DNA from: Myxococcota bacterium | GTDB taxonomy: Bacteria > Myxococcota_A > UBA9160 > PR03 | Assembly: GCA_041611735.1 (NCBI GenBank) | Contig: JBFIML010000005.1 | Coordinates: 7,525-71,524 of the forward strand | Reading direction: 5' to 3' | DNA length: 64,000 bases | In this document: positions 15,141-34,285 of the stretch, one piece after another | Numbering within the stretch: the stretch's first letter is position 1 | How the letters are laid out: each line of letters opens with the position of its first letter | Translations under genes and position numbers: made by a program | The notes under the pieces: generated by a model | Told to the model about the DNA's origin: nothing | Database searches by the model: none | Seen by the model: the letters and a program-made list of their open reading frames with translations, nothing else

Positions 15141-15187
15141 TGGAGCCGACGGCCGGATTCGAACCGGCGACCTGCTGATTGCGAATC
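15141..15187 (-). repeat. tRNA-Thr 3'-half copy (att repeat; partner at 34210-34256)
   Basis: tggagccgacggccggattcgaaccggcgacctgct is identical to the 3' end of the intact tRNA at 34210. The next 11 nt have 2 mismatches, and similarity is lost after that. No D-arm or 5' acceptor strand is present. Confidence 0.85.
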
Positions 15188-15287
15188 TGAGCGTCGCCTC
15201 TACTCCCGCGGACGCCCCCTTTCTCCAACCTGCTAGAATCGCTCTCGAATCGGCGTTTTCCGTTGAGCCTCGAACTACGCCTGCTTA

Positions 15288-15336
15288 TGCTTCCGGAAGC
15301 CCCGATTTGCTTCCGGATGCTTCCGACCTGCTTCCG
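15288..15336 (+). repeat. Four phased TGCTTCCG octamers (candidate integrase/excisionase arm-type sites)
   Basis: Copies lie at 15288-15295, 15308-15315, 15318-15325 and 15329-15336 (spacings 20, 10 and 11 nt), between the att repeat and the integrase start. Two more copies lie at the other island end. Confidence 0.6.
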
Positions 15337-15376
15337 AAATCCGAGGTCAGAGCGTCGCGGGGCGGAGGCGCCCGGA

Positions 15377-16561
15377 ATGGCGAAGCTCAACAAGCGCAGC
15401 GTGGACGCGGCCGCGCCGGGCCCGGGCGAGCGCTTCCTGTGGGACGAGGAGCTGCGCGGCTTCGGCCTGCGCGTCTTCCCCTCCGGCCGCAAGACCTTCT
15501 TCGTCCAGTACCGCGATCGCGTCCACGGCCGCACCCGCCGCTACGTGCTCGGCACCTACGGCGTCCTCACCCCCGCCGAGGCCCGCGCCCTGGCCGTGGA
15601 GGCGCTCGCCGAGGTCCAGAAGGGCGGCGCCCCCTCCGAGACCCGCCGCCAGGCCGCACAGGCCCCGACCGTGGCCGACCTCTGCGAGCGCTACGTCGCC
15701 GACTACGCCAAGGCCCGCAAGAAGCCCCGCAGCCTCGCCGAGGACGAGCGCCTGATCGACGACTTCATCAAGCCGGTCCTCGGCCGCCGCAAGGTGGCCT
15801 CCGTGAAGCGCCCGGACGTCGTGCGCCTCCACAACGCCATGGCGGGCACCCCCTACCAGGCCAACCGCGCGCTGGCCGTGCTCTCGAAGATGTTCAACCT
15901 GGCCGAGCGCTGGGGCCTGCGGTCCGACGGCAGCAACCCCGTGCGCCAGGTCGATCGCTTCCGGGAGCGCAAGCGCGAGCGCTTCCTCAGCAAGACCGAG
16001 CTCGCCCGGCTGGGCAAGCACCTGGCCGAGGCCGAGGCCGCCGGCACCGAGAAGGCCCCCACCCTCGCCGCCATCCGGCTGCTCTTCTTCACGGGCTGTC
16101 GTCTCAGCGAGATCCTGGGCCTGCGCTGGGCGGACGTGGACTTCGAGCGGCGCTGCCTGCGGCTCGCCGACTCGAAGACCGGCGCCCGGGTCGTCCCCCT
16201 GAACGCCCCGGCCCTCAAGGTCCTCGCCGACCTCGAGCCAGACGACTCGCCCTGGGTGATCCGCGGCCGCCGGCGCGGCGCCCCGCTGGTGAACCTCGGC
16301 AAGCCCTGGCGCCGCATCCGCGAGGCCACCAAGCTCGGCGACGTCCGCATCCATGACCTGCGCCACTCCTTCGCCAGCGTCGCCGCCGGCTCGGGGCACT
16401 CCCTGGTCGTGATCGGGGCGCTCCTCGGCCACCGCCAGGCCACCACCACGCACCGCTACGCCCACCTGTCGGACGACCCGGTGCGCACGGCCACGGAGGT
16501 GGTTGGAGCGCGGATCGAGGCCGCCATGGCGCGGCGAGATGCAGGCGACGGCGACGAGTAA
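15377..16561 (+). CDS. P4-type tyrosine integrase (DUF4102 arm-binding N-terminus plus catalytic domain)
   Basis: MAKLNKRSVDAA...FLWDEELRGFGLRVFPSGRKTFFVQYR...GRTRRYVLGTYGVLTPAEAR is the DUF4102-type N-terminus. The C-terminal part has RIHDLRHSFAS and HRYAH catalytic motifs. Confidence 0.85.
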   Translation: MAKLNKRSVDAAAPGPGERFLWDEELRGFGLRVFPSGRKTFFVQYRDRVHGRTRRYVLGTYGVLTPAEARALAVEALAEVQKGGAPSETRRQAAQAPTVADLCERYVADYAKARKKPRSLAEDERLIDDFIKPVLGRRKVASVKRPDVVRLHNAMAGTPYQANRALAVLSKMFNLAERWGLRSDGSNPVRQVDRFRERKRERFLSKTELARLGKHLAEAEAAGTEKAPTLAAIRLLFFTGCRLSEILGLRWADVDFERRCLRLADSKTGARVVPLNAPALKVLADLEPDDSPWVIRGRRRGAPLVNLGKPWRRIREATKLGDVRIHDLRHSFASVAAGSGHSLVVIGALLGHRQATTTHRYAHLSDDPVRTATEVVGARIEAAMARRDAGDGDE

Positions 16562-16699
16562 GACGCCGCGGAGGCGCGGGTTCGGCAGCCGGGCGGTTGA
16601 AGGACTGACGCTTCGCTGGCAGGGGCTTGGCCGGGCGACGGAAGCTGGATCGGCCAAGGCTTGGGCCGCTCGATCCCTAGTCCTGCCTCGAGTCGATCG

Positions 16700-18100
16700 G
16701 ATCCCCGGCGGGATCGCTTACGGCATCTATGAGTTCGTCAAGGACCTCGGCAACGAGTTGCCATGGCTCGGGTTTCTCCCGTGGTGGTCAGTTGGTTTCG
16801 TTCCGCATGCGCGTGAGCGCGGCGCGGCTTCGCTTGGCAGCGCGCTTCTCGCCGGCGCATCGAGCGTGAACCCGGCCTCGGCGTAGACGTCGTCGAGGTT
16901 GCGCGGTGCCCGCGCGGCGCGATGTCGCTCGTGCTTCTGGAGCTTGCGCAGCTTGAGCCGCGTGCGCTCCACGGCGGCGTAGCGGTACGGCTGCTGGGTG
17001 GTGAGGATGTGCCAGACGATCACGATCAGCTTGCGCGCCAGCGCAGTGACCGCGATCTGATCGCCCTTGCGGCGTCGGATGCGGTGGTAGGTCGCCGCCA
17101 GCGGCGAGCTGCTCCGCGCGATCGTGTGGGCCGCCTCGATCGCCAGCCAGCGGGCGTTGCGCGAGCCGGTCTTGGTGATGTGGCCGTAGTAGGCGGTGCC
17201 GCCGGACTGGCGGATCTTCGGTACCAGGCCGAAGTAGGCGGCCAGCTTCTGGGGGCTCGGGAAGCGGTCGATCGAGCCGATCGCGGCGAGGAAGCCCATG
17301 GCGACGACGACATCGACGCCCGGGATGGTGACCAGGAGCTTCGCGTCCGGATGGAGGCGGGCCTGCTCGAGGAGCTCGCGATCGAGGGCCTGGAGGCTCT
17401 CTTGAACGTGGCGCAGGAGCGCGGCCTGGTGATCCAGCACCAGGCGCTCGGCAGGCGGTAGCTCGAGCTCCGCGAGCCAACGGTAGCCCTTCTGGCTGAA
17501 CAGGAACCTCCCCGGGTAGCGCTGGAGGCTGCGGTTCAGCACGGCGTGGATGGTGTTCTTGGTGGCGACGGATTGGCGCCGCAGCTGGCGCCGATGGGCC
17601 ATGAGCTGGCGCACGGCCCAGGTCTCCCGGCTCGGCATCGCGACCTCCGGCAGGAAGTCGAGCCGCAGGAGCTGCGCCAGGATGTGGGCGTCCACCTTGT
17701 CCGTCTTGATCCGCGCGTAGGCGATCGCCTTGAGCGGCGCCGGCTCGGCGACCACCACGCGGTCGACGTAGCGCTCCAGGATCTGGACCAGGGCCCAGGT
17801 GTGGAAGGTCGCCTCCAGGGCGACCTCGTCGCCGCGCTCCAAGCCCCGGGCGAAGGCCTCGACGGCCTCCGGCCGGCCGCCGACGCGGAAGTCCCGGCGC
17901 TCCTGACCGTCCTCGGCCAGGCCGCAGACCTGGAGGAACTCCTTGTGGACATCGAGTCCGTAGAACATGCACACTCTCCTGCGGAGAGCCTCGGCGAAGG
18001 GTAATTGGGAAGAACGACACGTATCTATTCGCGCTCACAGCGCAGCCGCCCGAGTCGAGGGGGGAACCCAGGTAAGACATCGAGCTCGAAGCTCATGCGT
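16700..18100 (-). mobile_element. IS110-family insertion sequence (ends not determinable by eye; IS110 elements lack clear inverted repeats)
   Basis: Transposase CDS plus flanking non-coding DNA. The boundaries are approximate. Confidence 0.45.
16727..17968 (-). CDS. IS110-family (DEDD) transposase
   Basis: MFYGLDVHKEF... is the DEDD_Tnp_IS110-type N-terminus. LVTIPGVDVVVAMGFLAAIGSIDRFPSPQKLAAYFGLVPKIRQSGG matches the Transposase_20 domain pattern. The Arg-rich C-terminal tail may be read-through. Confidence 0.85.
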   Translation of the reverse strand: MFYGLDVHKEFLQVCGLAEDGQERRDFRVGGRPEAVEAFARGLERGDEVALEATFHTWALVQILERYVDRVVVAEPAPLKAIAYARIKTDKVDAHILAQLLRLDFLPEVAMPSRETWAVRQLMAHRRQLRRQSVATKNTIHAVLNRSLQRYPGRFLFSQKGYRWLAELELPPAERLVLDHQAALLRHVQESLQALDRELLEQARLHPDAKLLVTIPGVDVVVAMGFLAAIGSIDRFPSPQKLAAYFGLVPKIRQSGGTAYYGHITKTGSRNARWLAIEAAHTIARSSSPLAATYHRIRRRKGDQIAVTALARKLIVIVWHILTTQQPYRYAAVERTRLKLRKLQKHERHRAARAPRNLDDVYAEAGFTLDAPARSALPSEAAPRSRACGTKPTDHHGRNPSHGNSLPRSLTNS

Positions 18101-18250
18101 TAGTCGGCCGTCCCCACAGATCCTCGGCGTCCGAGGCTCTCCCATTCGTCCTTCGCTTCCGCCGCTGACCTGCGCCCCGTGGCCGGCGCCGAGAGGATGA
18201 CCCCGCGGCGCTCAGCGCACGAAGTGCGCGCAACCGGCGGGAAACATCAT
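17975..18250 (-). ncRNA. Candidate IS110 guide ('bridge') RNA region upstream of the transposase
   Basis: This is a non-coding leader with short perfect hairpins (ctctcc-tgc-ggagag near 17973-17987; cctcgg-cgt-ccgagg near 18121-18135). The assignment rests on family knowledge, not on a recognised fold. Confidence 0.25.
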
Positions 18251-18554
18251 GCGCGGCAACATAAGGGCAAGTCACAGTCGCGCTATGCGTCCGGAATCCC
18301 CACGGTTTTCGTGAATGGTTCCGCGCCCGGCGCTTCACTTGTGACTTGGATCCGATTGCTCATCAACCGGGATCGATTCGGCCGTCTCCCGACCGCCCGT
18401 TGACCACCTTGGTGACCGAGACGACGCCAAACCTTTCAAAGCACGTCCTCCGGCCGTCACCGCGGGCGTTGGGCTTCTCGGCCGGATGCGTTGCGCGGGC
18501 GCTCCTGGAAACCTCTCCTCATCGACCGGTCGGAGAGGTGACGCGGGCGTCCTC

Positions 18555-19268
18555 TCACCTGGAAGGGCGAGTCGAAGAGACGAGTACCAGCATGCCGAGT
18601 GCGCCAGCCACCACCGATCCGCCGAGGACTCCGGCCTTGGCGGCTTCGAGGCTCGCTCCTTCGAGGGCCAGGCCGGAGATGAAGAGCGCCATGGTGAATC
18701 CGATGCCGGCGAGGAGCCCGCCTGCGAGGAGCATCCCCCAGGTCACGCCACTTGGGAGGGTTGCGATCCCCGTCCGAACGACGAGGAAGCTCGCCACGAG
18801 GATTCCGACGGGTTTGCCCACGCAGAGGCCTACCGCTACGGCGATGGCGACGTCGTCCAGGCGCCGTGCCCGCCTCGCCACCCCCGCCCGCCACTTGCGC
18901 TGGTGGCGCAGGTAGCCGCGATCGCAGACGACGAGAGACGCGTCCTTGGCGAGCTCGAGGGCCACCGTATCGGGACGGCCTCGCCGCAGCACCAGCTTGA
19001 TCCCCCTCTCAGCCAGCGCCTCCGCCGTCTCCGCCAGGCCTTCGAGCAGGAACGCGAATGCACGCTCGCTGGCGTCGGGATAGCGATCGTAGAGGCCGAA
19101 TCCAACCACCACGGACTGGTCGCGTTCGTTCGCCAGCCGCACGGCGTGCTCCAGCGCCGGGTTGTGAAAGGCCCGCTGCGACTGCTGCATCCAATAGAGG
19201 ACGTACGAGCCCGAGTCGTCCGGAGGCTCGTCGCTCAAGCTGCGGATGCTTGGCTCTTCGACGCTCAC
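18555..19268 (-). pseudogene. Chimeric ORF: class II photolyase N-terminal fragment fused in frame to an NhaA antiporter C-terminal fragment
   Basis: Residues 1-~135 (YVLYWMQQSQRAFHNPALEHAVRLANE...LVVCDRGYLRHQRKWR) match the class II CPD photolyase N-terminal alpha/beta domain. Residues ~145-237 (VGLCVGKPVGILVASFLVVRTGIATLPSGVTWGMLLAGGLLAGIGFTMALFISGLAL...) match the last TM helices of NhaA. The junction lies near 18840-18865. Confidence 0.7.
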
Positions 19269-19355: not shown

Positions 19356-19769
19356 CTAGCGGGAGCCCTTGAATGGGAGCCGCATCGCCAGCTCCTGAAG
19401 TCGCGCCTCCGCCACCTCGCCTGCGCCATCCGAGGCGACCACGAGAAGATCCGGTCCGCCGAGCTCGAGCGCGACCTGGAGGCACGCGCCGCACGGCCAG
19501 GTGAGCTTGCCAGCAGTGCGCGGGGAGACGAGCGCCAGCAGCTCCGGACGGCCCAAGCCCTGGGCAACGACCGAGAAGAGGGCGGCGCGCTCCGAGCACA
19601 TCGCGAGACCCAGCGAGACGTTCTCGACCAGTGCCCCGGGGACGACCGCGCCACGATCTGTCACGACCGCCGCACCCATCTTGAAGCGGGAGTACGGGGA
19701 ATAGGCTCGTTCGAGCGCTTGCTCGGCCTGCTTCAGCGCCTCTCGGGCGCGCGCGTCTCGGACTTGCAT
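19356..19769 (-). CDS. cdd: Cytidine deaminase
   Basis: 137 aa with YSPYSRFKMGAAV, MCSERAA and WPCGACLQ zinc-ligand motifs. Confidence 0.8.
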   Translation of the reverse strand: MQVRDARAREALKQAEQALERAYSPYSRFKMGAAVVTDRGAVVPGALVENVSLGLAMCSERAALFSVVAQGLGRPELLALVSPRTAGKLTWPCGACLQVALELGGPDLLVVASDGAGEVAEARLQELAMRLPFKGSR

Positions 19770-19855
19770 GGGCGGAATACTACTAGAACGAGCCGGGCGC
19801 TGCGAAGACAGGCTATGTTGGTGCCACGGCGCGTCGCTCGACATCGAAGCCAGGG

Positions 19856-19875
19856 GATCTACTTTCCCGTAGATC
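19856..19875. promoter_or_regulatory. Perfect 7-6-7 inverted repeat GATCTAC-TTTCCC-GTAGATC upstream of dps (candidate operator)
   Basis: Lies 24 nt upstream of the dps ATG, in the cdd/dps divergent intergenic region. Confidence 0.35.
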
Positions 19876-19898
19876 TTCACAACCATGGAGAGATCTCG

Positions 19899-20342
19899 AT
19901 GAGTTCCAACGATCAGGTCGTGACGGCTCTGTCCAAGCTTCTCGCCGATACCGACACGGTCTACCTCAAGACCCACAACTACCACTGGAACGTGACAGGA
20001 CCGATGTTCAACACGCTCCACACGCTCTTCGAGACCCAGTACACGGAGTACGCGCTGGCCGTGGACGAGATCGCCGAACGCATCCGGGCAGTGGGGGCAC
20101 GCGCTCCGGGCAGCTACAGCGAATTCGCTGAGATCGCGTCCGTGAAGGAAGATCGTGGGTCGCCCCCGGCGATGCAGATGGTCGAGAACCTGGCCGCCGA
20201 TCAGAAGACGATCGTCATGGCGGCGCGCTCCGTCGTGGAGGCGCCCGAGACCATTGGCGACCAGGCGTCCGCCGACCTCGGCGCTCGTCGCATCCAGGTC
20301 CACGAGAAGAATGCCTGGATGCTGCGCAGCCACCTCGAGTAG
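19899..20342 (+). CDS. dps: Dps-family DNA-protecting ferritin-like protein
   Basis: 147 aa with LLADTDTVYLKTHNYHWNVTGPMFNTLHTLFETQYTE...VDEIAERI, the canonical Dps ferroxidase-site region. Confidence 0.85.
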   Translation: MSSNDQVVTALSKLLADTDTVYLKTHNYHWNVTGPMFNTLHTLFETQYTEYALAVDEIAERIRAVGARAPGSYSEFAEIASVKEDRGSPPAMQMVENLAADQKTIVMAARSVVEAPETIGDQASADLGARRIQVHEKNAWMLRSHLE

Positions 20343-20426: not shown

Positions 20427-21397
20427 ATGAGGAGCGGGCTGTGGCGCGACGACGCGACCCTTCGGGTGGGCATCTCCACCTGCCTCCTCGGGGAGGAGGT
20501 GCGCTGGGACGGTGGACACAAACGCCACCGCTTCCTCACGGACCTGCTCGCCGACTACGTGGAATGGGTCCCGGTCTGCCCGGAGGTCGAGATCGGCATG
20601 GGGATCCCCCGGGAGCCGGTGCACCTGATGCGACGTGAAGGGAAGATTCGCCTGCTCGGCACCAGGAGCGGGAACGACTGGACCAGCCGCATGGAGTCCT
20701 GGTCGGTGCGCCGGGTACGCGAGCTGGAGGCGCTCGACCTGTGCGGCTACGTGCTCAAGAAGGACTCGTCGAGCTGCGGCATGGAGCGGGTCAAGGTGCG
20801 CAGCGAGAAGGGCATGCCGAAGAAGGAGGGCCGCGGGGTCTTTGCCGGAACGCTCCAGGACCACGCCCCGGCGCTCCCCGTGGAAGAGGAGGGGCGACTC
20901 AACGACCCCGCGCTCCGCGAGAACTTCATCGAGCGGATCTTCGCCTACCGGCGCCTGCGCTCGCTCTTCGCGGAGCGCTGGAGCCGGGGGCGCCTCGTGG
21001 CCTTCCACACCGCCCACAAGCTCCAGCTGATGGCACACTCGCCCGAAGCCTATCGGTCCCTGGGCCGTCTGGTGGCGTCGGCGAAGGGGATTCCCCCGAA
21101 GGCGTTCCGCGCGCGCTACGAGAGCGAGTTCATGGCGGCGCTCCAGCATCGCGCGACCGCCCGCCGACACGTGACGTGCTCCAGCACTGCGTGGGCCACT
21201 TTCGCAAGCAGCTCGAGCGGGAGGCTCGGGCCGAGCTCGGCGAGCTCATTGCCGACTACCGCGCCGGGCTCGTCCCCCTGATCGTGCCCGTCACCCTGAT
21301 CCGTCACTACGTCCGGCACCTTCGGGTCGAGTATCTCGCGGGCCAGGTCTATCTCGAGCCCCACCCGAAGGAGCTCATGCTGCGAAACCATGTCTGA
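20427..21397 (+). pseudogene. YbgA-like DUF523+DUF1722 gene with an apparent frameshift near 21168-21180
   Basis: The DUF523 part is intact (VGISTCLLGEEVRWDGGHK...CPEVEIGMGIPRE). The DUF1722 part continues in another frame after ...ATARRHV (DVLQHCVGHFRKQLEREARAELGELIADYRAGLVPLIVPVTLIRHYV...PKELMLRNHV). This is either a sequencing error or decay. Confidence 0.65.
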
Positions 21398-22883
21398 GGG
21401 TCCGGAGGTCGGAGCGAGCGATGGCGGCAGCGTTGATTCCCCCGCGAAGAGGCGCCTCACCATCGCCATCGCCGGCGCCACGGGCTTCGTGGGAGAGGCC
21501 CTGTGCCGGGCCCTCGTGCCCGATCACCGCGTGATCGGGCTCACGCGCTCGCGAGAGCGCGCCGAGAGCTCGCAGCGCGACGGAGTCACCTGGCGTCGCT
21601 GCGACCTCTTCTCCCTGCGCGAGCTCGAGCTCGCCCTCGAGGGCGCGGACTACGCGATCTACCTGGTCCACTCGATGCTTCCCTCGGCGCGCCTCACCCA
21701 GGCCAGCTTCGCCGATCTCGACCTGCTGCTGGCCGACAACTTCGCGCGCGCCGCGCAGCGCTGCGGGGTGGGCCAGATCCTCTACGTCGGCGGTCTCACG
21801 CCTCCCGAGGGGCCGCTCTCGCCCCATCTCGCCAGCCGGCTCGAGGTGGAGCAGACCCTCGGCTCCCACGGCGTGCCCCTCACGGCGCTGCGGGCCGGGC
21901 TGATCGTAGGGCCCGGCGGGTCCTCGCTCTCGATCCTCGTGAACCTGGTTCGGCGGCTCCCGGCCATGATCCTGCCCCGCTGGACCGAGTCTCGGACACA
22001 GCCCATCGCGCTGGCGGACGTGGTGCGCGCTGCGCGGCACTGCGTCGGCAACCCGGAGACCTACGGGCGTAGCTTCGACATCGGCGGGCCCGACGTGATG
22101 ACCTACCGCAAGATGCTCACCCAGGTCGCGGAGGCCCTGGGGAAGCGGCGCTTCATGCTCGGGGTTCCGCTGTTCTCGCCGCGGCTTTCGCGCCTCTGGG
22201 TCACGGTCTTCAGCGGCGCTTCGGGGGCTCTCGTGAACCCACTGATCGAGACTCTTCGCCACGACATGGTCTGTGCCGAGAATCCCCTCCAGCGCTGGCT
22301 CGAGCCCGACGCCCAGGGTTTCGCGGCGTCTCTTGGTCGCTCGCTCGAGACGGGAGAGCTGGCCCCGCCGCCGCGCCACCGCCTGTTCCGGCTGGAGCGC
22401 GCCTCGCTACGGCGCACGAGCACGGTGCGTTCCGTCCAGCGGCTCGTGCTTCCGAAGGGCCGCGACGCACGCTGGGTCGCGGCGGAGTATCTGCGCTTCC
22501 TGCCGCGCTTCGTCGCCCCGCTCGTGGGCTGCCGGGTCGAGGGCGACCTCTGCCGCCTCACCCTGCGCGGTACGCCGCTGCTGCTGATGGAGATGCGCTT
22601 CGCGCCCGATCGCAGCAGCGACGATCGACAGATCTTCGACGTCGTGGGTGGGCTCCTGGTGCGCCGGGGCCCGGGCCCGCGCGGACGTCTCGAGTTCCGG
22701 GAGGTGCTAGAGCACCGCCACGTGGTCGCTGCCGTCCACGACTTCCAGCCGGCGCTGCCCTGGCCGATCTACAACCAGACCCACGCCAGGGTTCACCTGT
22801 GGGTCATGCGCGGGTTCGCGCGGCACCTGCGCCGGGTGGCTGAGGGCATGGCCGCGGCGATCCCCGCTAGTACCTCGGACTAG
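21390..22883 (+). CDS. NAD(P)H-binding (NmrA/atypical SDR-like) protein with DUF2867-like C-terminal domain
   Basis: The N-terminal Rossmann motif is IAIAGATGFVGEAL. 497 aa. The C-terminal half has no catalytic motif recognised. Confidence 0.6.
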   Translation: MSEGPEVGASDGGSVDSPAKRRLTIAIAGATGFVGEALCRALVPDHRVIGLTRSRERAESSQRDGVTWRRCDLFSLRELELALEGADYAIYLVHSMLPSARLTQASFADLDLLLADNFARAAQRCGVGQILYVGGLTPPEGPLSPHLASRLEVEQTLGSHGVPLTALRAGLIVGPGGSSLSILVNLVRRLPAMILPRWTESRTQPIALADVVRAARHCVGNPETYGRSFDIGGPDVMTYRKMLTQVAEALGKRRFMLGVPLFSPRLSRLWVTVFSGASGALVNPLIETLRHDMVCAENPLQRWLEPDAQGFAASLGRSLETGELAPPPRHRLFRLERASLRRTSTVRSVQRLVLPKGRDARWVAAEYLRFLPRFVAPLVGCRVEGDLCRLTLRGTPLLLMEMRFAPDRSSDDRQIFDVVGGLLVRRGPGPRGRLEFREVLEHRHVVAAVHDFQPALPWPIYNQTHARVHLWVMRGFARHLRRVAEGMAAAIPASTSD

Positions 22884-26398: not shown

Positions 26399-27631
26399 TC
26401 AGCGCGCTGACAGCAGGCGCACGCGGCTCAGGCGAACCCAGGAGGACGGCGACCTCAAAGCAGGCCAGGCCAGCTGACGCGCGGCCCGGTGAAGACGCCG
26501 TGCAGCGGCGGGGGCGGCGTCCCGCACGGACCGCCGGTCGATCTGCGCCATCACCAGCTCGAACACCCCCTCTTTTGCGGCCGACAGCGGTGGCCCTGCC
26601 AGGGCGAGCTGCCCGGCGACCAGAAAGCAGGAGAGGTCGCCGAAGGAGACCAGGGTGGGCTTGCCGGCGGGGCGGAAAGGCCGCAGCGAGCTCGGGTCGA
26701 GAAGCCGGCGGACGTTTCGGGCGGCGTGACGTCCCATGTCGAGCGCATGGTAGGCCTGCTTCTCGAGAGGCGAGGGGAGCTCCGCGGCGTCGCCCGCGAC
26801 GAAGACCTCCGGAGCGACCGCGCTCCTCAACGACGCTTCGACCGGCGCCCAGGCTCCCGGCTTCGGGGCGAGCCCGGAGGCGGCCAGCACGGGGGGCGCC
26901 GTGGGACCGCCCGTCCAGATCGTGGCCGCCGAGGGGAGGATCCGCCCCCCGGCAAGCGCCACGGCGCCGGCTTGGACCTTCGAGACGGCCGCGCCCGTGT
27001 GGAAGTGAACGTCGAAGCCTCGGCACAGGCGCCGCACGTGCCGATCCAGGCTCGGAGGCGCTTCCGGCAGCAGGCGAGCCCGAGCCTCGACGAGGTGGAT
27101 CCGGAATGCGCTGCTCTGGCGCCAGCGCCTCAGCATCTCTCCCAACGCCTCGACGCCCTCCAGGCCCCCTCCCACGATCACGACCTCGTGCGGCCCGTCC
27201 TCGGTAGCCAGCTCCTCGAGCCGTCGGCCGATCCGTGCGCATTCGTCCACGGACTTGAAGAGGAGGGCATGGGTCTCGACACCCGGGACGCCATGGGTGG
27301 CGTTCACGCCGCCGAGGGCCACGATGAGCGCGTCGTAGGGGAGCGGCCGGCGATCCTCGAGGTGGACGCGCCGCTCGGCGAGGTCGATGCCTTCGACTCC
27401 GGCCCGCACGAAGCGGTGACCGGCATCGCGCACGATGCGATCGCGGGGGAGCCGGAGCAGGCGAGGCGTCTTCACGCCCGACACGAGCTCGTGGATGTTC
27501 GGCAGGAACTCGAAGTGGCGGGTACGGTCGACGAGCGTGACACGCCATTCAGCGGGTAGCTCGGCCGCGGCGGCGAGACCGGCGAAGCCGCCGCCGAGGA
27601 CCACGACGCGGGGGGACGCGAGGCGTGTCAC
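26399..27631 (-). CDS. NDH-2-like FAD-dependent pyridine nucleotide-disulfide oxidoreductase
   Basis: VVVLGGGFAGLAAA and VVIVGGGLEGVE are the dinucleotide-binding motifs, and VFVAGDAA is also present. The GTG start at 27631 overlaps the upstream stop (GTGA). The long Arg-rich N-terminal extension in the track is rejected. Confidence 0.7.
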   Translation of the reverse strand: MTRLASPRVVVLGGGFAGLAAAAELPAEWRVTLVDRTRHFEFLPNIHELVSGVKTPRLLRLPRDRIVRDAGHRFVRAGVEGIDLAERRVHLEDRRPLPYDALIVALGGVNATHGVPGVETHALLFKSVDECARIGRRLEELATEDGPHEVVIVGGGLEGVEALGEMLRRWRQSSAFRIHLVEARARLLPEAPPSLDRHVRRLCRGFDVHFHTGAAVSKVQAGAVALAGGRILPSAATIWTGGPTAPPVLAASGLAPKPGAWAPVEASLRSAVAPEVFVAGDAAELPSPLEKQAYHALDMGRHAARNVRRLLDPSSLRPFRPAGKPTLVSFGDLSCFLVAGQLALAGPPLSAAKEGVFELVMAQIDRRSVRDAAPAAARRLHRAARQLAWPALRSPSSWVRLSRVRLLSAR

Positions 27632-28620
27632 TCCGTGTCCCCGAGCATTCGTGCGCCCAGCGCGAGCCCACTGGTCCACGCGCTCTCGACCCGATCGCCC
27701 CCGCACCAGTCCCCGCAGGCGCCCAGGCCCGCGGCTTCGGCGTAGAGGTGCGAAGCGGGGAGCGGACGCGTGACGCGGGCGAAGCGCCAGCGCTGACCCG
27801 CCAGGTGCTTCACGGCGGGAAGTGGACGACCCAGTGTAGCCCCGAGGGCGGAGACGAGATCGCGCGCGAAGCTCTCCGGCTCGGTCTCGAGATAGGTCGC
27901 GCTCCAGCCGGCAGCCGCGTGCAGCACCCAACGTTCGCCTCCGCCTCGCTGGGGCTTGGAAGAGTCGCGGGCCACCCAGGAGAGCGGGCTGGCCTCGACG
28001 AACGCTCCGTCGAAGGCTGCCTCGACGTCGGCCTCGAAGCCGACCATGGCTGCCAGGCATGGCGCCATCTCGGCCTCGGAGGCGCGCGCGGCGAGCTCGG
28101 GCACTGGCGCGAGGAGCGGCCAAGCCTGGGGCGCCGGCGTGGCGACCGCCACGGCCCCGAACGGCCCGTGGGACTGCCCGTCCGCGTCGCGGAGCGACCA
28201 GCGCCCCGCTTCGCCTTCGAGCGCCTGGATGCGGACGCCGCAGCGCACATCGAGCGTGCGCGCCAGGTGCCGCGCCAGACTGCTCATTCGCGGAATGGCG
28301 ACGAACCGCTTCGCGCTCGACGGACGCACGGCGACGCTCCCGCCGGCGAGATCCACGATGCGACCGGTCCACGGGGCGACGACGCTCTCCCCGACCCAGC
28401 CGTGGGCGGTCTTCGCGAACTCCGGATCCCGGGCGGTGAAGTACTGGGCGCCGTGGTCGAAAGCGCCGGCATCGCTGCGACGTGTGGAGATGCGACCGCC
28501 CGGCGCTCGCGCCTTCTCGAAGACTACGACCGCCGCGCCGGCCCGGGCCAGGGTGCTCGCACAGGCGAGTCCGGCGACGCCCGCGCCAACGATCGCGACG
28601 CTTCGCGCCGTGCTCGTCAC
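27628..28620 (-). CDS. NAD/FAD-dependent oxidoreductase (renalase-like, COG3380-type)
   Basis: VAIVGAGVAGLACASTLARAGAAVVVFEKARAPGGR is the N-terminal FAD motif. 330 aa. The GTG start overlaps the upstream stop. Confidence 0.65.
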   Translation of the reverse strand: MTSTARSVAIVGAGVAGLACASTLARAGAAVVVFEKARAPGGRISTRRSDAGAFDHGAQYFTARDPEFAKTAHGWVGESVVAPWTGRIVDLAGGSVAVRPSSAKRFVAIPRMSSLARHLARTLDVRCGVRIQALEGEAGRWSLRDADGQSHGPFGAVAVATPAPQAWPLLAPVPELAARASEAEMAPCLAAMVGFEADVEAAFDGAFVEASPLSWVARDSSKPQRGGGERWVLHAAAGWSATYLETEPESFARDLVSALGATLGRPLPAVKHLAGQRWRFARVTRPLPASHLYAEAAGLGACGDWCGGDRVESAWTSGLALGARMLGDTE

Positions 28621-29402
28621 AAGGGGTTGCCGCAGACGCGCTCGTAGGCCCCGCGCACGTCGTAGCTGCCGCCGAGGGCGCCCAGGTGATCGTAGAGGGC
28701 GGCCAGGTAGCAGCCGAGGGCCAGGAAGTTCGGGTGGAGCGACGCGCCGGCGTCGCGGCAGCGAACGAACACGTCGTGGAAGGACGTCTGGAAGCTCTTC
28801 GGGTCGAACTGCACCTCGCGTTGGTCGCCGTCGCCGAAGTGGTGCCGGAAGGAATCCCGCGCGGGCTCGAGTCTGAGGTCGGCGAGGGCCGCGTCGAAGA
28901 GCTCGTCGTCGCCGGAGTAGAAGCCGGCGTAGACCCGGCGTATCGCGTCGAGGAAGGACGCGTCCCAGCGGATCCAGTAGGGCCCTGGGTGCCAGACCAG
29001 GGTCTCACCGCCGCCCAGGAAGCGGTCGAGGCGCAGGTCGATCACGGCCGACTCGTGGGCCACGAGCTGCCCGAAGTAGATCTCCAGCACGCGCTGCCCG
29101 CGGGCTCGACGTCCGGAGTCGTCCAGGTCGCGGTGCGCATCGGGCTCGGCCGCCTCGCCCCCCGCGTAGAGCTCCACCGCCACGCCTCGTCGCTCGAGCG
29201 CGGCCTCGACCTCCTCGGCGAGGTCGCGAAAGCCGGACCGGTCGGAGGCGTTGCCGAGCAGCTCGCGCCCCTGACGCAGCAGCGCCCGGGCGGGCATCAC
29301 GTCGAAGAAGGAGGGCGACACGAAATCCGCGAGCTGCTTCCACTCCGCACCGCCCAGCGTGCGGCGGATCAGACCCTCGGCGCTGCGAGCCCAGCGGAAC
29401 AC
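28617..29402 (-). CDS. Hypothetical protein, first gene of a three-gene overlapping operon; family not recognised
   Basis: Ordinary protein composition (e.g. RVLEIYFGQLVAHESAVIDLRLDRFLGGGETLVWHPGPYWIRWDASFLDAIRRVYAGFYSGDDELF). A candidate GTG start at 29402 has GGAGGA upstream, and ATG alternatives lie further in. Confidence 0.5.
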   Translation of the reverse strand: MFRWARSAEGLIRRTLGGAEWKQLADFVSPSFFDVMPARALLRQGRELLGNASDRSGFRDLAEEVEAALERRGVAVELYAGGEAAEPDAHRDLDDSGRRARGQRVLEIYFGQLVAHESAVIDLRLDRFLGGGETLVWHPGPYWIRWDASFLDAIRRVYAGFYSGDDELFDAALADLRLEPARDSFRHHFGDGDQREVQFDPKSFQTSFHDVFVRCRDAGASLHPNFLALGCYLAALYDHLGALGGSYDVRGAYERVCGNPL

Positions 29403-29462
29403 ACCAACGAGGGTTCCTCCGGGTCGACCCCCCGTCAAGGTCTGGACAGCTATGTTCTTCTG

Positions 29463-30422
29463 GTGCCCAGGGAGCCGCAAGTCAGACGCGAGGCGGACCG
29501 TGTTGCCGCGGCCGTCGCCGGTCGCAGAGCCGAGCGCTGCTGCAAGTTCGAGCGCACGAGCCGCCTCGTGCTGGCTACACTCATCGGCGTCGCTTGCCTG
29601 GCGGCCTACGCGGACGACGTCGCCCGAGGTGACGCGGCGTGGGCCGGCCGCGCGGAGGGCGAGCGGGAAGGGCGCCCGATGCCCGGGCCCATCCGCGAGG
29701 CCGTGCGCGCTTACGAGAGCGCGCTCGCGGCGAGCCCCGAGAGCCTGGAAGCGCGCTGGAAGCTGCTTCGCGCGCTCCACTTCGAGGGAGAGTTCGCCGC
29801 GCAGGAAGCGGAGGACAAGCGCACGGTCTTCGGTCGAGCCCGGGAGGTCTCCGAAGAAGGGCTGGGCCTGCTGGCAGACCAGGTCGGCGCCGGCGTGCGG
29901 CTCGACGACCTGGAGACCGGGGACGTCGCGAGTCGCCTCGCGGCCTCGGGCTTGCCGCCGACCGGGGTGGCACGGCTCTACTTCTGGTCGGCGATCAACT
30001 GGGGAGCCTGGAGCCAGCAAGTCGGCCTGCTCCGGGCGGTCCGGCAGGGAGTGGCGAATCGGCTGTACCGGTACACGGAGATCGCGATCGCGCTCGAGCC
30101 CGACTACGACGAGGGAGGCGCCCTGCGTCTCCTGGGCCGGTTGCACGCCGAGCTGCCCCGGGTGCCCTTCGTATCGGGCTGGGTCGACCGGAGGCAGGCG
30201 CTTCCGCTGATCGAGCGAGCCCACGCCCTGGCCCCGAACAATCCCGGCAACCGCCTGCTCCTGGCCCTCACCCTCCTCGACCTCGCTCCCGAGCGGCGCG
30301 CCGAGGCGCTGGGGCTCCTGGAGCAGGTCCAGGAGCTGACGCCCCGTGCCTCCATGCGCGTCGAGGACCTCGCCATGCGCCGGGAGGCCCGGGAACGCCT
30401 CGCCACAGAGCGGGGCGGCTGA
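29463..30422 (+). CDS. Secreted helical-repeat (TPR-like, possibly TatT-like) protein
   Basis: The hydrophobic signal is LVLATLIGVACLAAYADD, followed by helical repeats (LEARWKLLRALHFEG..., YFWSAINWGAWSQQVG..., LLLALTLLDLAPERRAEALGLLEQV). The GTG start at 29463 is inferred because there is no in-frame ATG upstream of the signal peptide. Confidence 0.5.
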   Translation: MPREPQVRREADRVAAAVAGRRAERCCKFERTSRLVLATLIGVACLAAYADDVARGDAAWAGRAEGEREGRPMPGPIREAVRAYESALAASPESLEARWKLLRALHFEGEFAAQEAEDKRTVFGRAREVSEEGLGLLADQVGAGVRLDDLETGDVASRLAASGLPPTGVARLYFWSAINWGAWSQQVGLLRAVRQGVANRLYRYTEIAIALEPDYDEGGALRLLGRLHAELPRVPFVSGWVDRRQALPLIERAHALAPNNPGNRLLLALTLLDLAPERRAEALGLLEQVQELTPRASMRVEDLAMRREARERLATERGG

Positions 30423-30436: not shown

Positions 30437-31312
30437 ATGAAGAAGGCCACGGCCCAGGCCGTCCTCTCGATCCCGGTGATCCTGCTGGTCGCGGCCGCCG
30501 TGGGCTGGGCGGGGAGCCAGGGCGGGCAGCGGTTCGGGGCGGTGCCGGTCTTCGCGCTGTGCGGCGCCTTTTGCTTCGCCCTGAACTGGCTGGTCTTCGT
30601 TCCCTCCTACGCCGCCCACACGGAGCGTTACTTCGACCTCACCGGCAGCCTCACCTACCTCGGAGCCATCGCCTGCGGGGTCGCCCTGGGAAGCCGTGAT
30701 CCGCGCGCGCTGCTGCTGGCGGTGCTGGTCGGTGTCTGGGCGCTACGCCTCGGCAGCTTCCTGTTCCGGCGCATCCGCCGCGACGGCGTGGACCGTCGCT
30801 TCGACGCGCTCAAGGTCGACTTCACGCGCTTCCTTTTGACCTGGACGCTCCAGGGCCTGTGGGTCTTCCTCACCGTCTCGTGCGCGCTCGCCGCCATCAC
30901 GGCAGCGGTGCCGACGCCCCTGGGCCCGACGGCGGCGCTGGGAGCCGCCGTCTGGATCGTCGGCTTCGCGATCGAGGCCATCGCCGACCGCCAGAAGGCA
31001 GCCTTCCGGGGGGATCCGGCGAACCGCGACCGCTTCATCGCCACGGGTCTGTGGGCCTGGTCGCGCCATCCCAACTACTGCGGGGAGATCCTGCTCTGGA
31101 TCGGGGTGGCGCTGATCGCCGTCCCTGCGCTCTCGGGCTGGCAGCTAGTGACGCTGATCTCCCCGGTCTTCGTGTACGTCCTGCTGACCCGCATCAGCGG
31201 GATCCCGCTTCTCGAGTCGCGGTCCGATGCCAAGTGGGGCGACGACCCGGACTACCAGGCCTACAAGGCACGCACGCCCGTGCTGTGGCTCCGGCCCCCG
31301 GCCTCGAGTTGA
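30437..31312 (+). CDS. DUF1295 (steroid 5-alpha-reductase/ICMT-like) membrane protein
   Basis: Polytopic, with the family motif GLWAWSRHPNYCGEILLWIG. Confidence 0.75.
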   Translation: MKKATAQAVLSIPVILLVAAAVGWAGSQGGQRFGAVPVFALCGAFCFALNWLVFVPSYAAHTERYFDLTGSLTYLGAIACGVALGSRDPRALLLAVLVGVWALRLGSFLFRRIRRDGVDRRFDALKVDFTRFLLTWTLQGLWVFLTVSCALAAITAAVPTPLGPTAALGAAVWIVGFAIEAIADRQKAAFRGDPANRDRFIATGLWAWSRHPNYCGEILLWIGVALIAVPALSGWQLVTLISPVFVYVLLTRISGIPLLESRSDAKWGDDPDYQAYKARTPVLWLRPPASS

Positions 31313-32652
31313 GCCCGACGACCGTCCGCCATCCCCCTCTCCGGCTCGCCACCTATGCGCTTCCCTCCCTGGTCAGCTCCGTGGCCGCGCTGCCCCTGGC
31401 GCTCTTCGTCCCGGCGTTCTACGCCGACGACCTCGGCGTGCCGCTGGCGGCCGTCGGCATGGCGATCGCCGCCTCGCGCCTGCTCGACGTCGTCACGGAC
31501 CCGCTGATCGGCATCGCCAGCGATCGGCTGGCGCTCGGCTGGGGGCGGCGCAAGCCGTGGATGGTGCTCGGGACGCCGCTCTTCGCCGTGGCGCTGTGGC
31601 AGATCTTCGTGCCGGGCGAGACCGCGAGTGCGGGCAGCCTGCTCGGCTGGTCGGCGCTCCTCTACCTCGGCTTTACGCTGATCGACCTGCCCCACAAGGC
31701 CTGGGGCGCCGAGCTCTCCCCCGACTACGACGAGCGCTCCCGCATCACGAGCTGGCGAGAGGGCCTCTCGGCCGTCGGCCAGGTGGCGCTCCTCGCCGTC
31801 CTCGTGGCGTGGGCCGCCGGAGGAGTCAGCGACGCAGCCGAGCAGCTGCGGGGCATCGCGCTGGTGGTCGTGATCGCGCTGCCGCTGCTGGTGGCCGCGG
31901 CAGTGATGGGTGTTCCGGAGGGCCCACGAGAGGGCTTCGCCCACGAGCGCCGTGGCATCTTCGAAGGTCTTCGCCTGGTCGCCCGCAACCCGGCCTTCCG
32001 CCGCATGATCGGCTGCGTGGTCTTCTTCGTATCCGGGATCGCGATCCAGGGCACCCTGCATCGCCTCGTCCTCGCCGATGTGATGCACGACGAGGGGCGC
32101 TTCCCGCTGATGCTCCTAGTCGAGAATCTCGCCACCCTCGCCGCGGTGCCGGTCTGGCTGCGCACCTCGCTCGCAACGGGCAAGCACCGCGCGCTGGTGG
32201 CGGCCGCGCTGTGGCTCGCGGTCTTCAGCGTCCCCCTCGTCTTCCTGCGCGAGGGCGACACGGCGGCGTTGATCGTCCTCATCGCGATCCGGGGCTCGAG
32301 CTTCGCCTCGATCCTGTTCCTCGCGAACTCCATCGCTGCAGACGTGATCGACCTGGACACGCTCGCGTCGGGCGAGCAGCGCTCGGGCCTCTTCTTCGCA
32401 GTCTGGGGCATGACCACGAAGCTGTCCCTGGCCCTCGGCGTCCTGCTCGGGACGGCTCTGCCGGCAGCGTTCGGCTACGACCCGTCCGTGGAAGGCGCAG
32501 CGCCCGCCGTCCAGGCCCGACTGATGGCGTTCTATGGCGGGGTCCCCGCGCTGCTCATGACGATCGGGGCGCTCTTCCTGCGCGGCTTTCCGGTCACCCG
32601 CGAGCGTCACGCCGCCGTGCGGGCTGAGATCGCGAGACGCACGGGCTCCTAG
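31309..32652 (+). CDS. MFS transporter, glycoside-pentoside-hexuronide (MelB-like) type
   Basis: RLLDVVTDPLIGIASDRLALGWGRRKPWMVLG is the GPH signature, with 12 hydrophobic segments. The TTG start overlaps the upstream TGA (TTGA). Confidence 0.7.
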   Translation: MSPTTVRHPPLRLATYALPSLVSSVAALPLALFVPAFYADDLGVPLAAVGMAIAASRLLDVVTDPLIGIASDRLALGWGRRKPWMVLGTPLFAVALWQIFVPGETASAGSLLGWSALLYLGFTLIDLPHKAWGAELSPDYDERSRITSWREGLSAVGQVALLAVLVAWAAGGVSDAAEQLRGIALVVVIALPLLVAAAVMGVPEGPREGFAHERRGIFEGLRLVARNPAFRRMIGCVVFFVSGIAIQGTLHRLVLADVMHDEGRFPLMLLVENLATLAAVPVWLRTSLATGKHRALVAAALWLAVFSVPLVFLREGDTAALIVLIAIRGSSFASILFLANSIAADVIDLDTLASGEQRSGLFFAVWGMTTKLSLALGVLLGTALPAAFGYDPSVEGAAPAVQARLMAFYGGVPALLMTIGALFLRGFPVTRERHAAVRAEIARRTGS

Positions 32653-32741: not shown

Positions 32742-33149
32742 CTAGCGCGGATCCAGCCTGAGGAACTGTCTCGGCGCGAAGCCGGTGAAGACGTAGCCGA
32801 CCAGCGGAAACCCCGACTCGTCGAGAAGGCGTCTGCGTTCCTCCTCGCTGACAGGGATTGCGCGGTAGTCAGTGATCTCGCCCCTGCGGGTCACACTGAC
32901 ATCTGGATTCTTGAGCGCGCGGTGGTACCACGCGCGCGGCCAGTGGTTCGCAGAGACGTAGAGCCGACCGTCGTGGTCGAGGGGCGATAGGACCCGCTCG
33001 TAGGACTTCCCGTCCGTGCCGGTCGTGGTGATGACGATCGTCTCCACCCCGATGTTCTCCGGCTGAAACACGACTAACGCGGTTATGCAGCCGGTGTGAG
33101 CAGCCGCGAGAATGCAAAGGCTCAGGGTGGCAACGTATCGGAGGTGCAT
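32742..33149 (-). CDS. Small lipoprotein-like protein with weak DUF385/split-barrel (deazaflavin-dependent nitroreductase-like) resemblance
   Basis: The signal with Cys is LSLCILAAAHTGC. The DGRLYVSANHWPRAWYHRALKNPDVSVTRRGEI..AIPVSEEERRRL pattern is similar to DUF385 proteins. Confidence 0.4.
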   Translation of the reverse strand: MHLRYVATLSLCILAAAHTGCITALVVFQPENIGVETIVITTTGTDGKSYERVLSPLDHDGRLYVSANHWPRAWYHRALKNPDVSVTRRGEITDYRAIPVSEEERRRLLDESGFPLVGYVFTGFAPRQFLRLDPR

Positions 33150-33281
33150 GGTGCCTCTTGTGGTCCCGCCACAGTCTACCGCTCCGCCCCTGGGCGTTCT
33201 TCTATTGCGACGCGACCGTGGCTTGGCGAGCCGAGGCGAGGCCCAGCGCAGCGTTGGACGGGTGTCGGGATCGAGCTCGGT

Positions 33282-33473
33282 CTAGAAGCGCCTCTCGACG
33301 CCCAGGATGGGGGTGCGCTCGGGCTCGCTCTCCGCATCCTGTCCGGACGAGCGCCGGGCCGACCTGGCCGCTGCGTCGAAGCCGGCGAGCACCTGCCGGG
33401 TAAGCTGCTCCGTCCTCCCCGCCCGATAGGTCGCGGTTCCGGGGACGGCCATCGCCTTGCTGGGCTTCGGCAT
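33282..33473 (-). pseudogene. Outer-membrane beta-barrel / TonB-dependent-receptor-like C-terminal fragment
   Basis: Ends ...[24 protein letters not shown]...ILGVERRF-stop. The terminal aromatic residue after an alternating pattern is typical of OMP C-termini, and no upstream body is present. Confidence 0.4.
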
Positions 33474-33703
33474 GCGCTCCTGGCGCTATTCGATGCTCGT
33501 GAACGACGGCAAGATTGAGAAGATGTTCGTGGAGCCTCTGCGCATCATGGACATCATCGAGGCCAGCGGGACCGGCTTTGCCTTCCCCTCCCAGACGCTC
33601 TTTCTCGGCCGGGACGAGGCCCCGGCGAAGCAGCGCGCGGGGGAGATCGCCGACGAGGTCAGGGCCTGGCGCGAGCGCAACGAGCTCTACCTCCCGGTCT
33701 TCC
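33469..33703 (+). pseudogene. Two fused gene fragments: peroxiredoxin-5-type C-terminus, then MscS-family channel C-terminus
   Basis: [23 protein letters not shown] is the Prx5-type motif. It is followed directly by [28 protein letters not shown]...[15 protein letters not shown], the typical end of MscS-like proteins. Confidence 0.55.
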
Positions 33704-33755
33704 GGCGGCTCGGATCGCGGCGCTCGAGAACACGGTCCGGTTCCCTCCTCAGGGA

Positions 33756-34016
33756 TCACCGGACCACAGAGCCGGCTGACGCTCGGGCGGGAGCTCCCGG
33801 ATCGGAGGTCGAGCGCCGGCGCGCGGCCTCGACGTACTGCTCCAGGTCCTCCGGGTCGTAGCGGACCGCGCCTCCCAGCTTGAGGAAGGGCGGTCCGTTG
33901 CCCTGGAGTCGCCACTTCTGCAGCGTGCGGACGCTCAGCCCCAGCCGCTGGGAGGCGTCGCGTTCGGTCAGCAGCTCCGCCATGCCCGAGGCCATCGCAA
34001 GCCCCGTGCCGCGCAA
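33756..34016 (-). CDS. Excisionase/AlpA-type helix-turn-helix DNA-binding protein
   Basis: [49 protein letters not shown] matches the excisionase-family HTH pattern. The true start is probably an internal ATG (about 33983). Confidence 0.7.
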
Positions 34017-34147
34017 AGCCTGGGCGACAGCGGCGGAGGCGTCGCCGCAGCCCGGTTCGGGCCGATCCTGGCTGCCGCTGGCGCGGGCAGCGGCACCAAG
34101 GCGGCTTCGATTCGGGGCCCTTCCGCGCGTCCCAAGAGGCCGCCGAT

Positions 34148-34166
34148 TGCTTCCGCCCTGCTTCCG
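34148..34166 (+). repeat. Two TGCTTCCG octamers 11 nt apart (same motif and strand as 15288-15336)
   Basis: Copies lie at 34148-34155 and 34159-34166, between the excisionase-like gene and the tRNA. Confidence 0.55.
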
Positions 34167-34209
34167 GGCTCTGTGTCGCGAAATCGCGCCCGCGTAACTA
34201 GGCGAAATG

Positions 34210-34285
34210 TGGAGCCGACGGCCGGATTCGAACCGGCGACCTGCTAATTACGAATCAGCTGCTCTACCAGCTGAGCTACGTCGGC
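34210..34285 (-). tRNA. tRNA-Thr (anticodon CGU), 76 nt with encoded CCA
   Basis: The reverse complement folds as GCCGACG-TA-GCTC-AGCTGGTA-GAGC-A-GCTGA-TTCGTAA-TTAGC-AGGTC-GCCGG-TTCGAAT-CCGGC-CGTCGGC-T-CCA. This is a complete cloverleaf with an anticodon loop TT-CGT-AA. Confidence 0.9.

Follow-up and report, generated by a model that had tools for sequence, protein, structure and literature searches.

A probable 19-kb integrative island in the 3' half of a tRNA-Thr(CGU) gene of an uncultured Myxococcota bacterium

Introduction

Why should half of a tRNA gene lie 19 kb downstream of the intact gene, in the same orientation, and what arrived with it? The question is raised by a stretch of 64,000 nt from an uncultured Myxococcota bacterium (contig JBFIML010000005.1; "the window" is this whole stretch, and coordinates without a locus name refer to it). 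In the window the 3' half of a tRNA-Thr(CGU) gene is repeated on the far side of a set of genes that begins with a tyrosine recombinase gene and ends with a gene for a small helix-turn-helix (HTH) protein. An annotation made from the letters alone (the sequence-only reading) had proposed that the interval is an integrative island in tRNA-Thr(CGU). Every test that we ran supports this proposal, and we consider it very probable (roughly 0.9) that the interval is a 19,069-bp element that entered the 3' half of the tRNA gene by site-specific recombination of the tyrosine recombinase type.

Borders of the island

The two copies of the direct repeat (15140-15187 and 34209-34256) have the same orientation, are identical at 46 of 48 positions and lie 19,069 bp apart, start to start. 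They match without a mismatch over 36 nt (15141-15176 and 34210-34245); the two mismatches, both G against A, are at 15177/34246 and 15181/34250. The sequence thus bears out the 47-nt repeat originally described (36 identical nt plus 11 with two mismatches) and adds one matching G, at 15140/34209. A 22-mer of the repeat core has two copies in the window and none in any of 100 dinucleotide-preserving shuffles.

The sole tRNA that ARAGORN finds in the window is tRNA-Thr(CGT), at 34210-34285 on the minus strand, a call backed by Rfam (71.5 bits); this makes the right copy the 3' half of tRNA-Thr, as had been read from the cloverleaf. The gene is 83-99% identical to the tRNA-Thr genes of relatives, and the repeat begins on it 2 nt 5' of the anticodon loop and continues to CCA and 1 nt beyond. 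The left copy lies downstream of the tRNA-Thr 3' end, oriented as in the tRNA. It lacks the tRNA 5' half, and neither ARAGORN nor Rfam calls a tRNA there, in agreement with its description as a 3' half only and not with a second functional tRNA gene, the alternative on which the sequence-only reading would have fallen. Two of the features by which Islander recognizes islands in tRNA genes (tDNAs) are present, namely an intact tRNA with a cognate 3' fragment downstream on the same replicon and in the same orientation, and a tyrosine integrase of neither the Xer nor the integron type within the interval.

The mismatches were analyzed in an alignment of the tRNAs from 28 relatives, in which every tRNA with the anticodon stem strand GCTGA pairs it with TCAGC. 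The displaced fragment keeps the TCAGC of all GCTGA relatives; the functional tRNA-Thr of the window has TTAGC opposite GCTGA, giving a G.U pair (position 40, window 34246). The fragment is also the only sequence with C, instead of T, at anticodon position 36. The pattern is the one predicted if a C36/T40 attP and a T36/C40 attB had undergone reciprocal exchange and the crossover fell between these two positions. Three scenarios are, however, equally costly, each needing two events: attP-derived inner bases with a crossover further 3', the 36-40 exchange, and drift after integration. We thus dropped the attempt to place the crossover from the two mismatches, and infer that it lay within the anticodon loop or adjacent to it, as in Islander class A. 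The sequence-only reading had taken the mismatches as attP-derived bases in the left copy; this survives as one of the three scenarios, but matters are not so simple, because at position 40 the fragment has the state of the relatives and it is the functional tRNA that is unusual.

The recombination module

As had been proposed, a P4-type integrase gene lies just inside the left repeat copy. Its 394-aa product has the Pfam domains Arm-DNA-bind_3 (1.6e-16), Phage_int_SAM_3 and Phage_integrase (1e-23), and so combines the Arm-DNA-bind_3/DUF4102, SAM-like and catalytic (R-K-H-R-H-Y) parts that define the P4-like architecture. It matches a family profile, built from 68 homologues and the window protein itself, over its full length (591 bits) and keeps 68 of the 71 near-invariant residues, including R242, K267, H326, R329, H352 and Y361; the enzyme appears to be intact. 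Its scores against P4 integrases proper are low, with 20.4 bits against the NCBIfam model PRK09692 (P4-like; cut-off 434) and best phage matches of only 38-40% identity, while the NCBIfam Xer and integron models score far under their cut-offs. The same 69-sequence profile finds no further P4-like integrase in the window beyond this one gene.

At the other end, 193 nt from the right repeat copy, lies the predicted excisionase-type HTH gene. Its product is a small HTH_17 (AlpA/Xis-type) protein, encoded within the element near att and int, which reaches 23.4 bits against TIGR01764 ("excise"), under the cut-off of 28.8; homologues are present in 17 of the 80 integrase-homologue loci described below. 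It is the putative directionality factor. Candidate arm-type sites accompany both genes: half of the 12 copies of TGCTTCC in the window are found at the two island ends, within the ~360 nt that would form attP; four direct repeats occupy part of the gap from the tRNA fragment to the integrase gene, and two lie 44 nt inside the right repeat copy.

A metagenome scan with the island integrase yielded 80 loci whose integrases are 44-75% identical to it (loci from this and the other searches carry L numbers). In six (L047, L048, L050, L053, L063 and L122) a tRNA-Thr 3' half precedes the integrase gene by ~200 nt and has the orientation seen in the window; its similarity to the tRNA ends at the same base as in the window, and a pair of GCTTCC motifs lies between the fragment and the integrase start codon. 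Locus L046 contains, at 9768-16579, a complete 6.7-kb island in tRNA-Arg(TCT) with the same geometry as the window. Its integrase (58% identical) is encoded just inside the distal copy of a 56-nt tRNA-Arg(TCT) repeat, the 22-nt arm-type repeat CTGCTTACCTCCTGCTTACCCG is present near both ends, and near the tRNA there is an HTH_17 gene followed by one for a 641-aa AAA_25 replication-type protein; this island is a good intact reference for the element family. In L119 (integrase 45% identical) and L120 (54%), the integrase is followed, 4-8 kb downstream, by a tRNA-Lys gene on the other strand, the integrase-to-tRNA spans being ~5.3 kb and ~9.3 kb, respectively; a Rep/G2P-like match in L119 is weak (23 bits, below the Pfam cut-off). 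The tRNA specificities of the integrase family thus comprise Thr and Arg and, probably, Lys. Integrases of the same family are also encoded directly downstream of, and on the same strand as, an intact tRNA-Cys(GCA) gene (L052, L054, L058, L107 and L115), and in these members the att orientation is opposite to that of the tRNA-Thr and tRNA-Arg (and probably tRNA-Lys) members.

The tRNA-Thr half at six homologues, the parallel island in L046 and the TGCTTCC clusters at both ends are three independent lines of support for the presence of a real integration module. The same observations bear on the proposal that the repeat is a local duplication or partial tRNA pseudogene, with the integrase being a passenger of some other element. 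Although partial tRNA copies can arise in such ways, and the composition of the island is near-native, this proposal would have to account for a fragment that runs exactly from the anticodon loop to the tRNA 3' end, like class A att sites (PMC4383910), for the recurrence of the fragment-integrase geometry in six independent metagenomic loci and, with another tRNA, in L046, and for arm repeats at both ends; we give it very little credence. It is also highly unlikely that two contigs were falsely joined through the shared 48-nt tRNA sequence. The source is apparently a metagenome assembly, all the related genomes that we found are metagenome-assembled genomes (MAGs), and the encoded aminotransferase is recorded on one NCBI contig of 135.7 kb, but 48 nt is less than a normal read length, and a false join would not yield a second copy together with an integrase gene, arm repeats and an excisionase gene in the places typical of the family.

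Integration would, on this evidence, have proceeded from an element that carried, in its attP, its own version of the tRNA 3' half, anticodon loop included. With this half supplied by attP, recombination would have rebuilt the tRNA at 34210-34285 and moved the original 3' half of the host to 15141-15187. In the excised circle the HTH_17 and integrase genes would be divergent across attP (~315 nt), in which the predicted order is two arm repeats on the HTH_17 side, the tRNA-like core and four arm repeats on the integrase side. The element may still be able to excise as a circle of 19,069 bp.

The tRNA-Thr site in related genomes

To the right of the tRNA the window encodes a class IV aminotransferase, a Trp/Tyr-tRNA synthetase, a sulfatase, an exosortase, ClpB and two HtrA proteases. 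A genome scan with the aminotransferase returned 43 loci, all from uncultured Myxococcota-type MAGs, with full-length matches at 48-65% identity. In ~30 of the 43 the aminotransferase gene is closely preceded by a tRNA-Thr(CGU) gene on the other strand, and synteny with the window to the right of the tRNA is seen in up to 33. The aminotransferase, Trp/Tyr-tRNA synthetase, ClpB and HtrA genes are hence the uninterrupted housekeeping genes that the sequence-only reading had placed there, and are syntenic in relatives. The conserved aminotransferase start lies ~135 nt from the tRNA 5' end in the window (34286-34420); in relatives (L001, L125 and others) the gap is 0.7-1 kb and contains a small open reading frame (ORF; 870-1178 in L125).

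On the other side of the tRNA the picture is different. None of the genes at 1-34.2 kb of the window, except integrase pieces, is found downstream of the tRNA-Thr of the relatives. The gene order of the island without its repeat and integrase, which the sequence-only reading had named as evidence that would undo it, was accordingly not encountered, since no relative has the island genes at this position. The downstream flanks of the relatives are also unrelated to one another, and the 3' side of tRNA-Thr is thus a variable spot across the lineage; an integrase lies downstream of tRNA-Thr in 3 of ~24 relatives.

An older integrase at the same site

Directly left of the displaced fragment, outside the island, lies the C-terminal relic of a second tyrosine recombinase. 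It matches Pfam Phage_integrase over profile positions 121-165 of 172 (E 1.2e-4), covers box II to the catalytic tyrosine (...HALRHT...GGWASAKMLLDVYG...) and stops ~100 nt short of the tRNA fragment. The part N-terminal of box II, box I included, is missing, and an opposite-strand ORF of 1030 codons starts there. The relic has no similarity to the integrase of the island. It is 54% identical to an integrase piece in L018 that adjoins a full tRNA-Thr gene and ends at the same distance from it as the relic does from the fragment; at the nucleotide level, 14880-15187 of the window is colinear with L018 across both the spacer and the 3' half of the tRNA, and the match stops precisely at 15187, beyond which L018 has the 5' half of the tRNA. 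Searched against proteins, the L018 piece yielded 13 homologues, one of which is encoded in L125. The order in L125 is relic-type integrase, tRNA-Thr(CGU), small ORF, class IV aminotransferase and Trp/Tyr-tRNA synthetase, with no island, which is the configuration expected before arrival of the 19-kb island. An empty tRNA-Thr site flanked by the sequence left of 15141, which the sequence-only reading had proposed to look for in relatives, is represented, at family-level distance only, by L018 and L125, which lack the island, though the flank turns out to be an integrase relic and not plain chromosome. In all three loci (window 14775-15233, L018 2365-3138, L125 3-494), the relic-type integrase frame extends without a stop codon into the tRNA-Thr 3' half, which is encoded on the other strand. 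A Mx8-like nature of the relic, with attP inside int, was considered and dropped; there is no special similarity to Myxococcus phages, and the best phage matches are mycobacteriophage integrases at ~34%.

The DNA to the left of the relic differs in composition from the rest of the window. G+C is 64.3% in this left region, 70.1% in the island and 73.7% right of the tRNA, and G+C at third codon positions (GC3) is 0.72-0.89 in the left region and 0.93-0.97 in core genes. A G+C profile had been suggested as a check on the island; its G+C is indeed below that of the right flank, but it is not sharply set off, and G+C shifts most at its left edge. The left region shows no synteny with relatives and encodes an antitoxin-like protein just left of a 3'-end fragment of a transfer-messenger RNA (tmRNA) gene. 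ARAGORN calls no gene at this fragment, which scores below the Rfam gathering score, and no integrase was found beside it; it may be an att remnant of an ssrA-targeting element. At 6585-14790 there are large ORFs of 345, 376, 596, 428 and 1030 codons (G+C 60-66%), for which Pfam, NCBIfam and PADLOC are essentially empty, the only matches being DUF3103 and a weak CehA/PHP-like stretch in the 1030-aa protein. This region is probably older or otherwise acquired DNA at the same hot spot.

The relic beside the fragment, along with ~15 kb of low-G+C, non-syntenic DNA, marks tRNA-Thr as a re-used hot spot and points to earlier use of the site by another integrase family; on this evidence at least 34 kb downstream of the tRNA can be said to be accessory DNA. 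A refinement, rather than a replacement, of the island proposal follows, in which repeated integration at tRNA-Thr has produced a composite of 34 kb or more, the 19 kb being only its unit nearest to the tRNA; the left repeat copy would then mark where an older island, reaching left beyond the window, once met the tRNA. The spacing and convergent orientation of relic and fragment, which are those seen at the intact tRNA-Thr of L018 and L125, favour it, as do the composition of positions 1-14.8 kb, the missing synteny, the antitoxin-like gene and tmRNA fragment, and the integrases downstream of tRNA-Thr in relatives. However, no third tRNA-Thr fragment is present in 1-15.1 kb, where the best scores equal those of shuffles; the best-looking candidate was rejected, since it turned out to be the tmRNA 3' fragment. 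The relic might also be an ancient vertical fossil, the divergence between the window, L018 and L125 being about that of a neighbouring housekeeping gene, and low-G+C DNA could have come by other routes. We lean slightly towards the composite. In an Islander tandem array each unit has an integrase gene and a tDNA fragment of its own (PMC4383910). With an integrase relic lacking box I as the only integrase of the left unit and no third fragment, the locus is a re-used site with a relic and not a formal tandem array.

Cargo and gene remnants

Because the genome is very G+C-rich, ORF lists are noisy; reading frames were therefore chosen by GC3 frame plots and then searched against Pfam, NCBIfam and PDB sequences. 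The results are collected in Table 1.

The IS110 element that had been noted within the island is confirmed by a transposase with DEDD and Transposase_20 domains that matches NCBIfam NF033542 over its full length (255.8 bits, cut-off 140; profile 1-343 of 343). IS110 elements encode a guide (bridge) RNA in a non-coding stretch upstream of the transposase gene. The non-coding stretch in this position (17975-18340) has no Rfam match, and the window has no second IS110 copy by which the ends of the insertion sequence could be defined.

Of the at least six broken genes reported in the island, five were verified inside it (NhaA, photolyase, TudS-DUF1722, peroxiredoxin and MscS/YnaI), whereas the sixth, the integrase relic, lies just outside. 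A single translation joins a photolyase N-terminal piece (~18861-19202; Pfam DNA_photolyase profile 1-115 of 164) in-frame to an NhaA C-terminal piece (~18582-18863; Na_H_antiport_1 profile 281-374 of 374). The TudS-DUF1722 (RudS-like) gene is frameshifted, with DUF1722 profile positions 1-64 in one frame and 51-117 in another and a matching switch of the GC3 frame, and could be a pseudogene or an assembly error. In a 143-codon frame, PDB searches align residues 11-42 with residues 118-149 of 1nm3 (E 2e-7) and residues 37-72 with residues 311-344 of YnaI (E 0.003-0.02). The 330-aa amine oxidase was suspected of being truncated; the suspicion was rejected, since the protein aligns end to end with the 336-aa bacterial renalase 3kkj and is thus intact. 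The lowest G+C of the island is at 19356-20342, in the cytidine-deaminase-like and ferritin/Dps-like genes. Pfam and NCBIfam scans of the island ORFs, which did not take in every small ORF, revealed no virion, conjugation, relaxase or replication genes.

Table 1. Features of the window, in order of position; assignments rest on the searches named
Feature	Position	Strand	Basis or remark
Left region, low G+C, mostly family-less ORFs	1-14774		No synteny with relatives
Addiction-module antidote-like (antitoxin-like) protein	5380-5964	-	Pfam dnstrm_HI1420, 3.9e-11
tmRNA 3'-end fragment (...GGCCGGGTTCGATTCCCGCCGCCTCCAC)	6062-6111	+	Rfam tmRNA, 25.4 bits, E 1.4e-6
C-terminal relic of second tyrosine recombinase (box II HxLRH to catalytic Tyr)	14850-15041	+	Pfam; outside island
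Displaced tRNA-Thr 3' fragment, left repeat copy (attR core)	15140-15187	-	46/48 identity to right copy
Four direct TGCTTCC repeats, candidate arm-type sites (P' arm)	15288-15335	+	Between tRNA fragment and integrase start
Island integrase, 394 aa from ATG, P4-like architecture	15377-16561	+	Pfam; frame open from 15263
IS110-family transposase, full length	16727-17974	-	Pfam DEDD_Tnp_IS110, Transposase_20
Photolyase N-terminal piece fused in-frame to NhaA C-terminal piece	18582-19202	-	Pfam, single translation
Cytidine-deaminase-like gene	19356-19799	-	Family searches
Ferritin/Dps-like gene	~19926-20342	+	Family searches
TudS-DUF1722 (RudS-like) gene	20427-21397	+	Pfam; frameshifted near 21.1 kb
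SDR/NmrA gene	21390-22883	+	Pfam
Lipocalin gene	22915-23625	-	Pfam
MerR regulator gene	23828-24613	+	Pfam
Photolyase-related DPRP protein	~24571-26067	+	Pfam
Pyr_redox_2 flavoprotein	26399-27640	-	Pfam
Renalase-like FAD (flavin adenine dinucleotide) amine oxidase, intact	27628-28620	-	PDB 3kkj
ORF without assigned family	28617 to ~29400	-	
TPR protein	~29400-30422	+	Family searches
DUF1295 protein	30437-31312	+	Family searches
MFS_2 transporter	~31354-32652	+	Family searches
Small F420H2_quin_red-like protein	32742-33149	-	Family searches
Two abutting fragments, peroxiredoxin-5-like and MscS/YnaI C-terminal end	33460-33645	+	PDB sequence search, 143-codon frame
HTH_17 (AlpA/Xis-type) gene, putative excisionase or regulator	33756-34016	-	Pfam HTH_17, 2.7e-11
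Two direct TGCTTCC repeats, candidate arm-type sites (P arm)	34148-34165	+	44 nt inside right repeat copy
tRNA-Thr(CGU), intact, integration target	34210-34285	-	3' half 34210-34256 = right repeat copy (attL core)

Discussion

The overall results are consistent with an integrative island in the 3' half of tRNA-Thr(CGU), and several points that weigh against this proposal should be set beside them. The empty site is seen at family-level distance only, because the closest homologue of the host aminotransferase, on a 1.6-kb contig, is 78% identical. The G+C and GC3 of the island are near the host values, and composition therefore lends the proposal weak support. The low scores for a third tRNA-Thr fragment belong here too, and in a sequence that is likely a metagenome assembly, as are all the related genomes, single frameshifts such as that of the RudS-like gene could be assembly errors.

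The lack of replication, transfer and virion genes among the ORFs scanned, together with the IS110 element and the gene debris, suggests that the element is degenerate and non-autonomous, and it is now probably a fixed accessory region with a light- and oxidative-stress gene set. A more far-reaching possibility is that the island is an excision-competent, mobile "light-stress" cassette of Myxococcota that also swaps the 3' half of the host tRNA-Thr(CGU) for the G.U variant, a variant seen in none of the 28 relatives. We regard this as doubtful; if true, it would mean that a MerR/LitR-type regulator, a photolyase relative, a RudS-type tRNA 4-thiouridine desulfidase and flavoproteins move between hosts.

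The value of these findings lies mainly in annotation: island borders to the base, an attP/int/xis module that looks to be in working order, and candidate arm sites. They also present tRNA-Thr(CGU) as a hot spot at which elements have integrated more than once, in a Myxococcota lineage that is uncultured and poorly known. No current idea is challenged by the island, although its integrase family, with tRNA-Thr, tRNA-Arg and probable tRNA-Lys targets, could be of modest use where site-specific integrases are needed for high-G+C bacteria.

With respect to its cargo, the island invites comparison with the light-responsive operons of Pseudomonas and others in which RudS, LitR (a MerR protein) and photolyase genes are combined, RudS-type proteins consisting of a TudS desulfidase and DUF1722 and acting in the removal of 4-thiouridine modification from tRNA (PMC11417400). 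The island likewise has RudS-type, MerR and photolyase-family genes close to one another, along with lipocalin, SDR and flavoprotein genes, and its cargo may be light-regulated; it differs in that its RudS-type gene is frameshifted and its photolyase relative is of the DPRP type.

With respect to integration, the nearest general counterpart is found among the tDNA-integrated islands of the Islander collection (3919 islands, 125 tandems), in which class A denotes an anticodon-centred att site (PMC4383910). The window shares with class A islands the intact tRNA, the displaced 3' fragment, the non-Xer tyrosine integrase and the usual size. Nothing essential differs; the particulars of this case are its uncultured Myxococcota host and an integrase gene at the tRNA-distal end, next to the fragment.

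Among the loci retrieved here, the window and L046 have in common a tRNA fragment just upstream of the integrase gene, arm-type repeats at both ends and an HTH_17 gene near the tRNA, and the integrases of L046, L119 and L120 are 45-58% identical to that of the window. The L046 island measures 6.7 kb and has an AAA_25 gene, whereas the 19-kb island of the window is without such a gene and contains metabolic and stress cargo, an IS110 element and gene debris.

P4-like elements, such as satellite phage P4 and the CP4-57-type cryptic islands of E. coli, have integrases composed of DUF4102/Arm-DNA-bind_3, SAM-like and catalytic domains, as has the island. In these elements, too, the integrase 5' end and promoter lie beside attP, an AlpA/HTH_17 protein is the partner and the 3' part of a tRNA gene is the target. 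In contrast, P4-type primase, capsid-size and helper-exploitation genes were not found among the island ORFs scanned, and the orientation of its attP leaves the integrase gene far from the tRNA after integration. By these comparisons, the island is of an ordinary and well-understood tDNA island type, in a host lineage and with an integrase subfamily that have been little studied.

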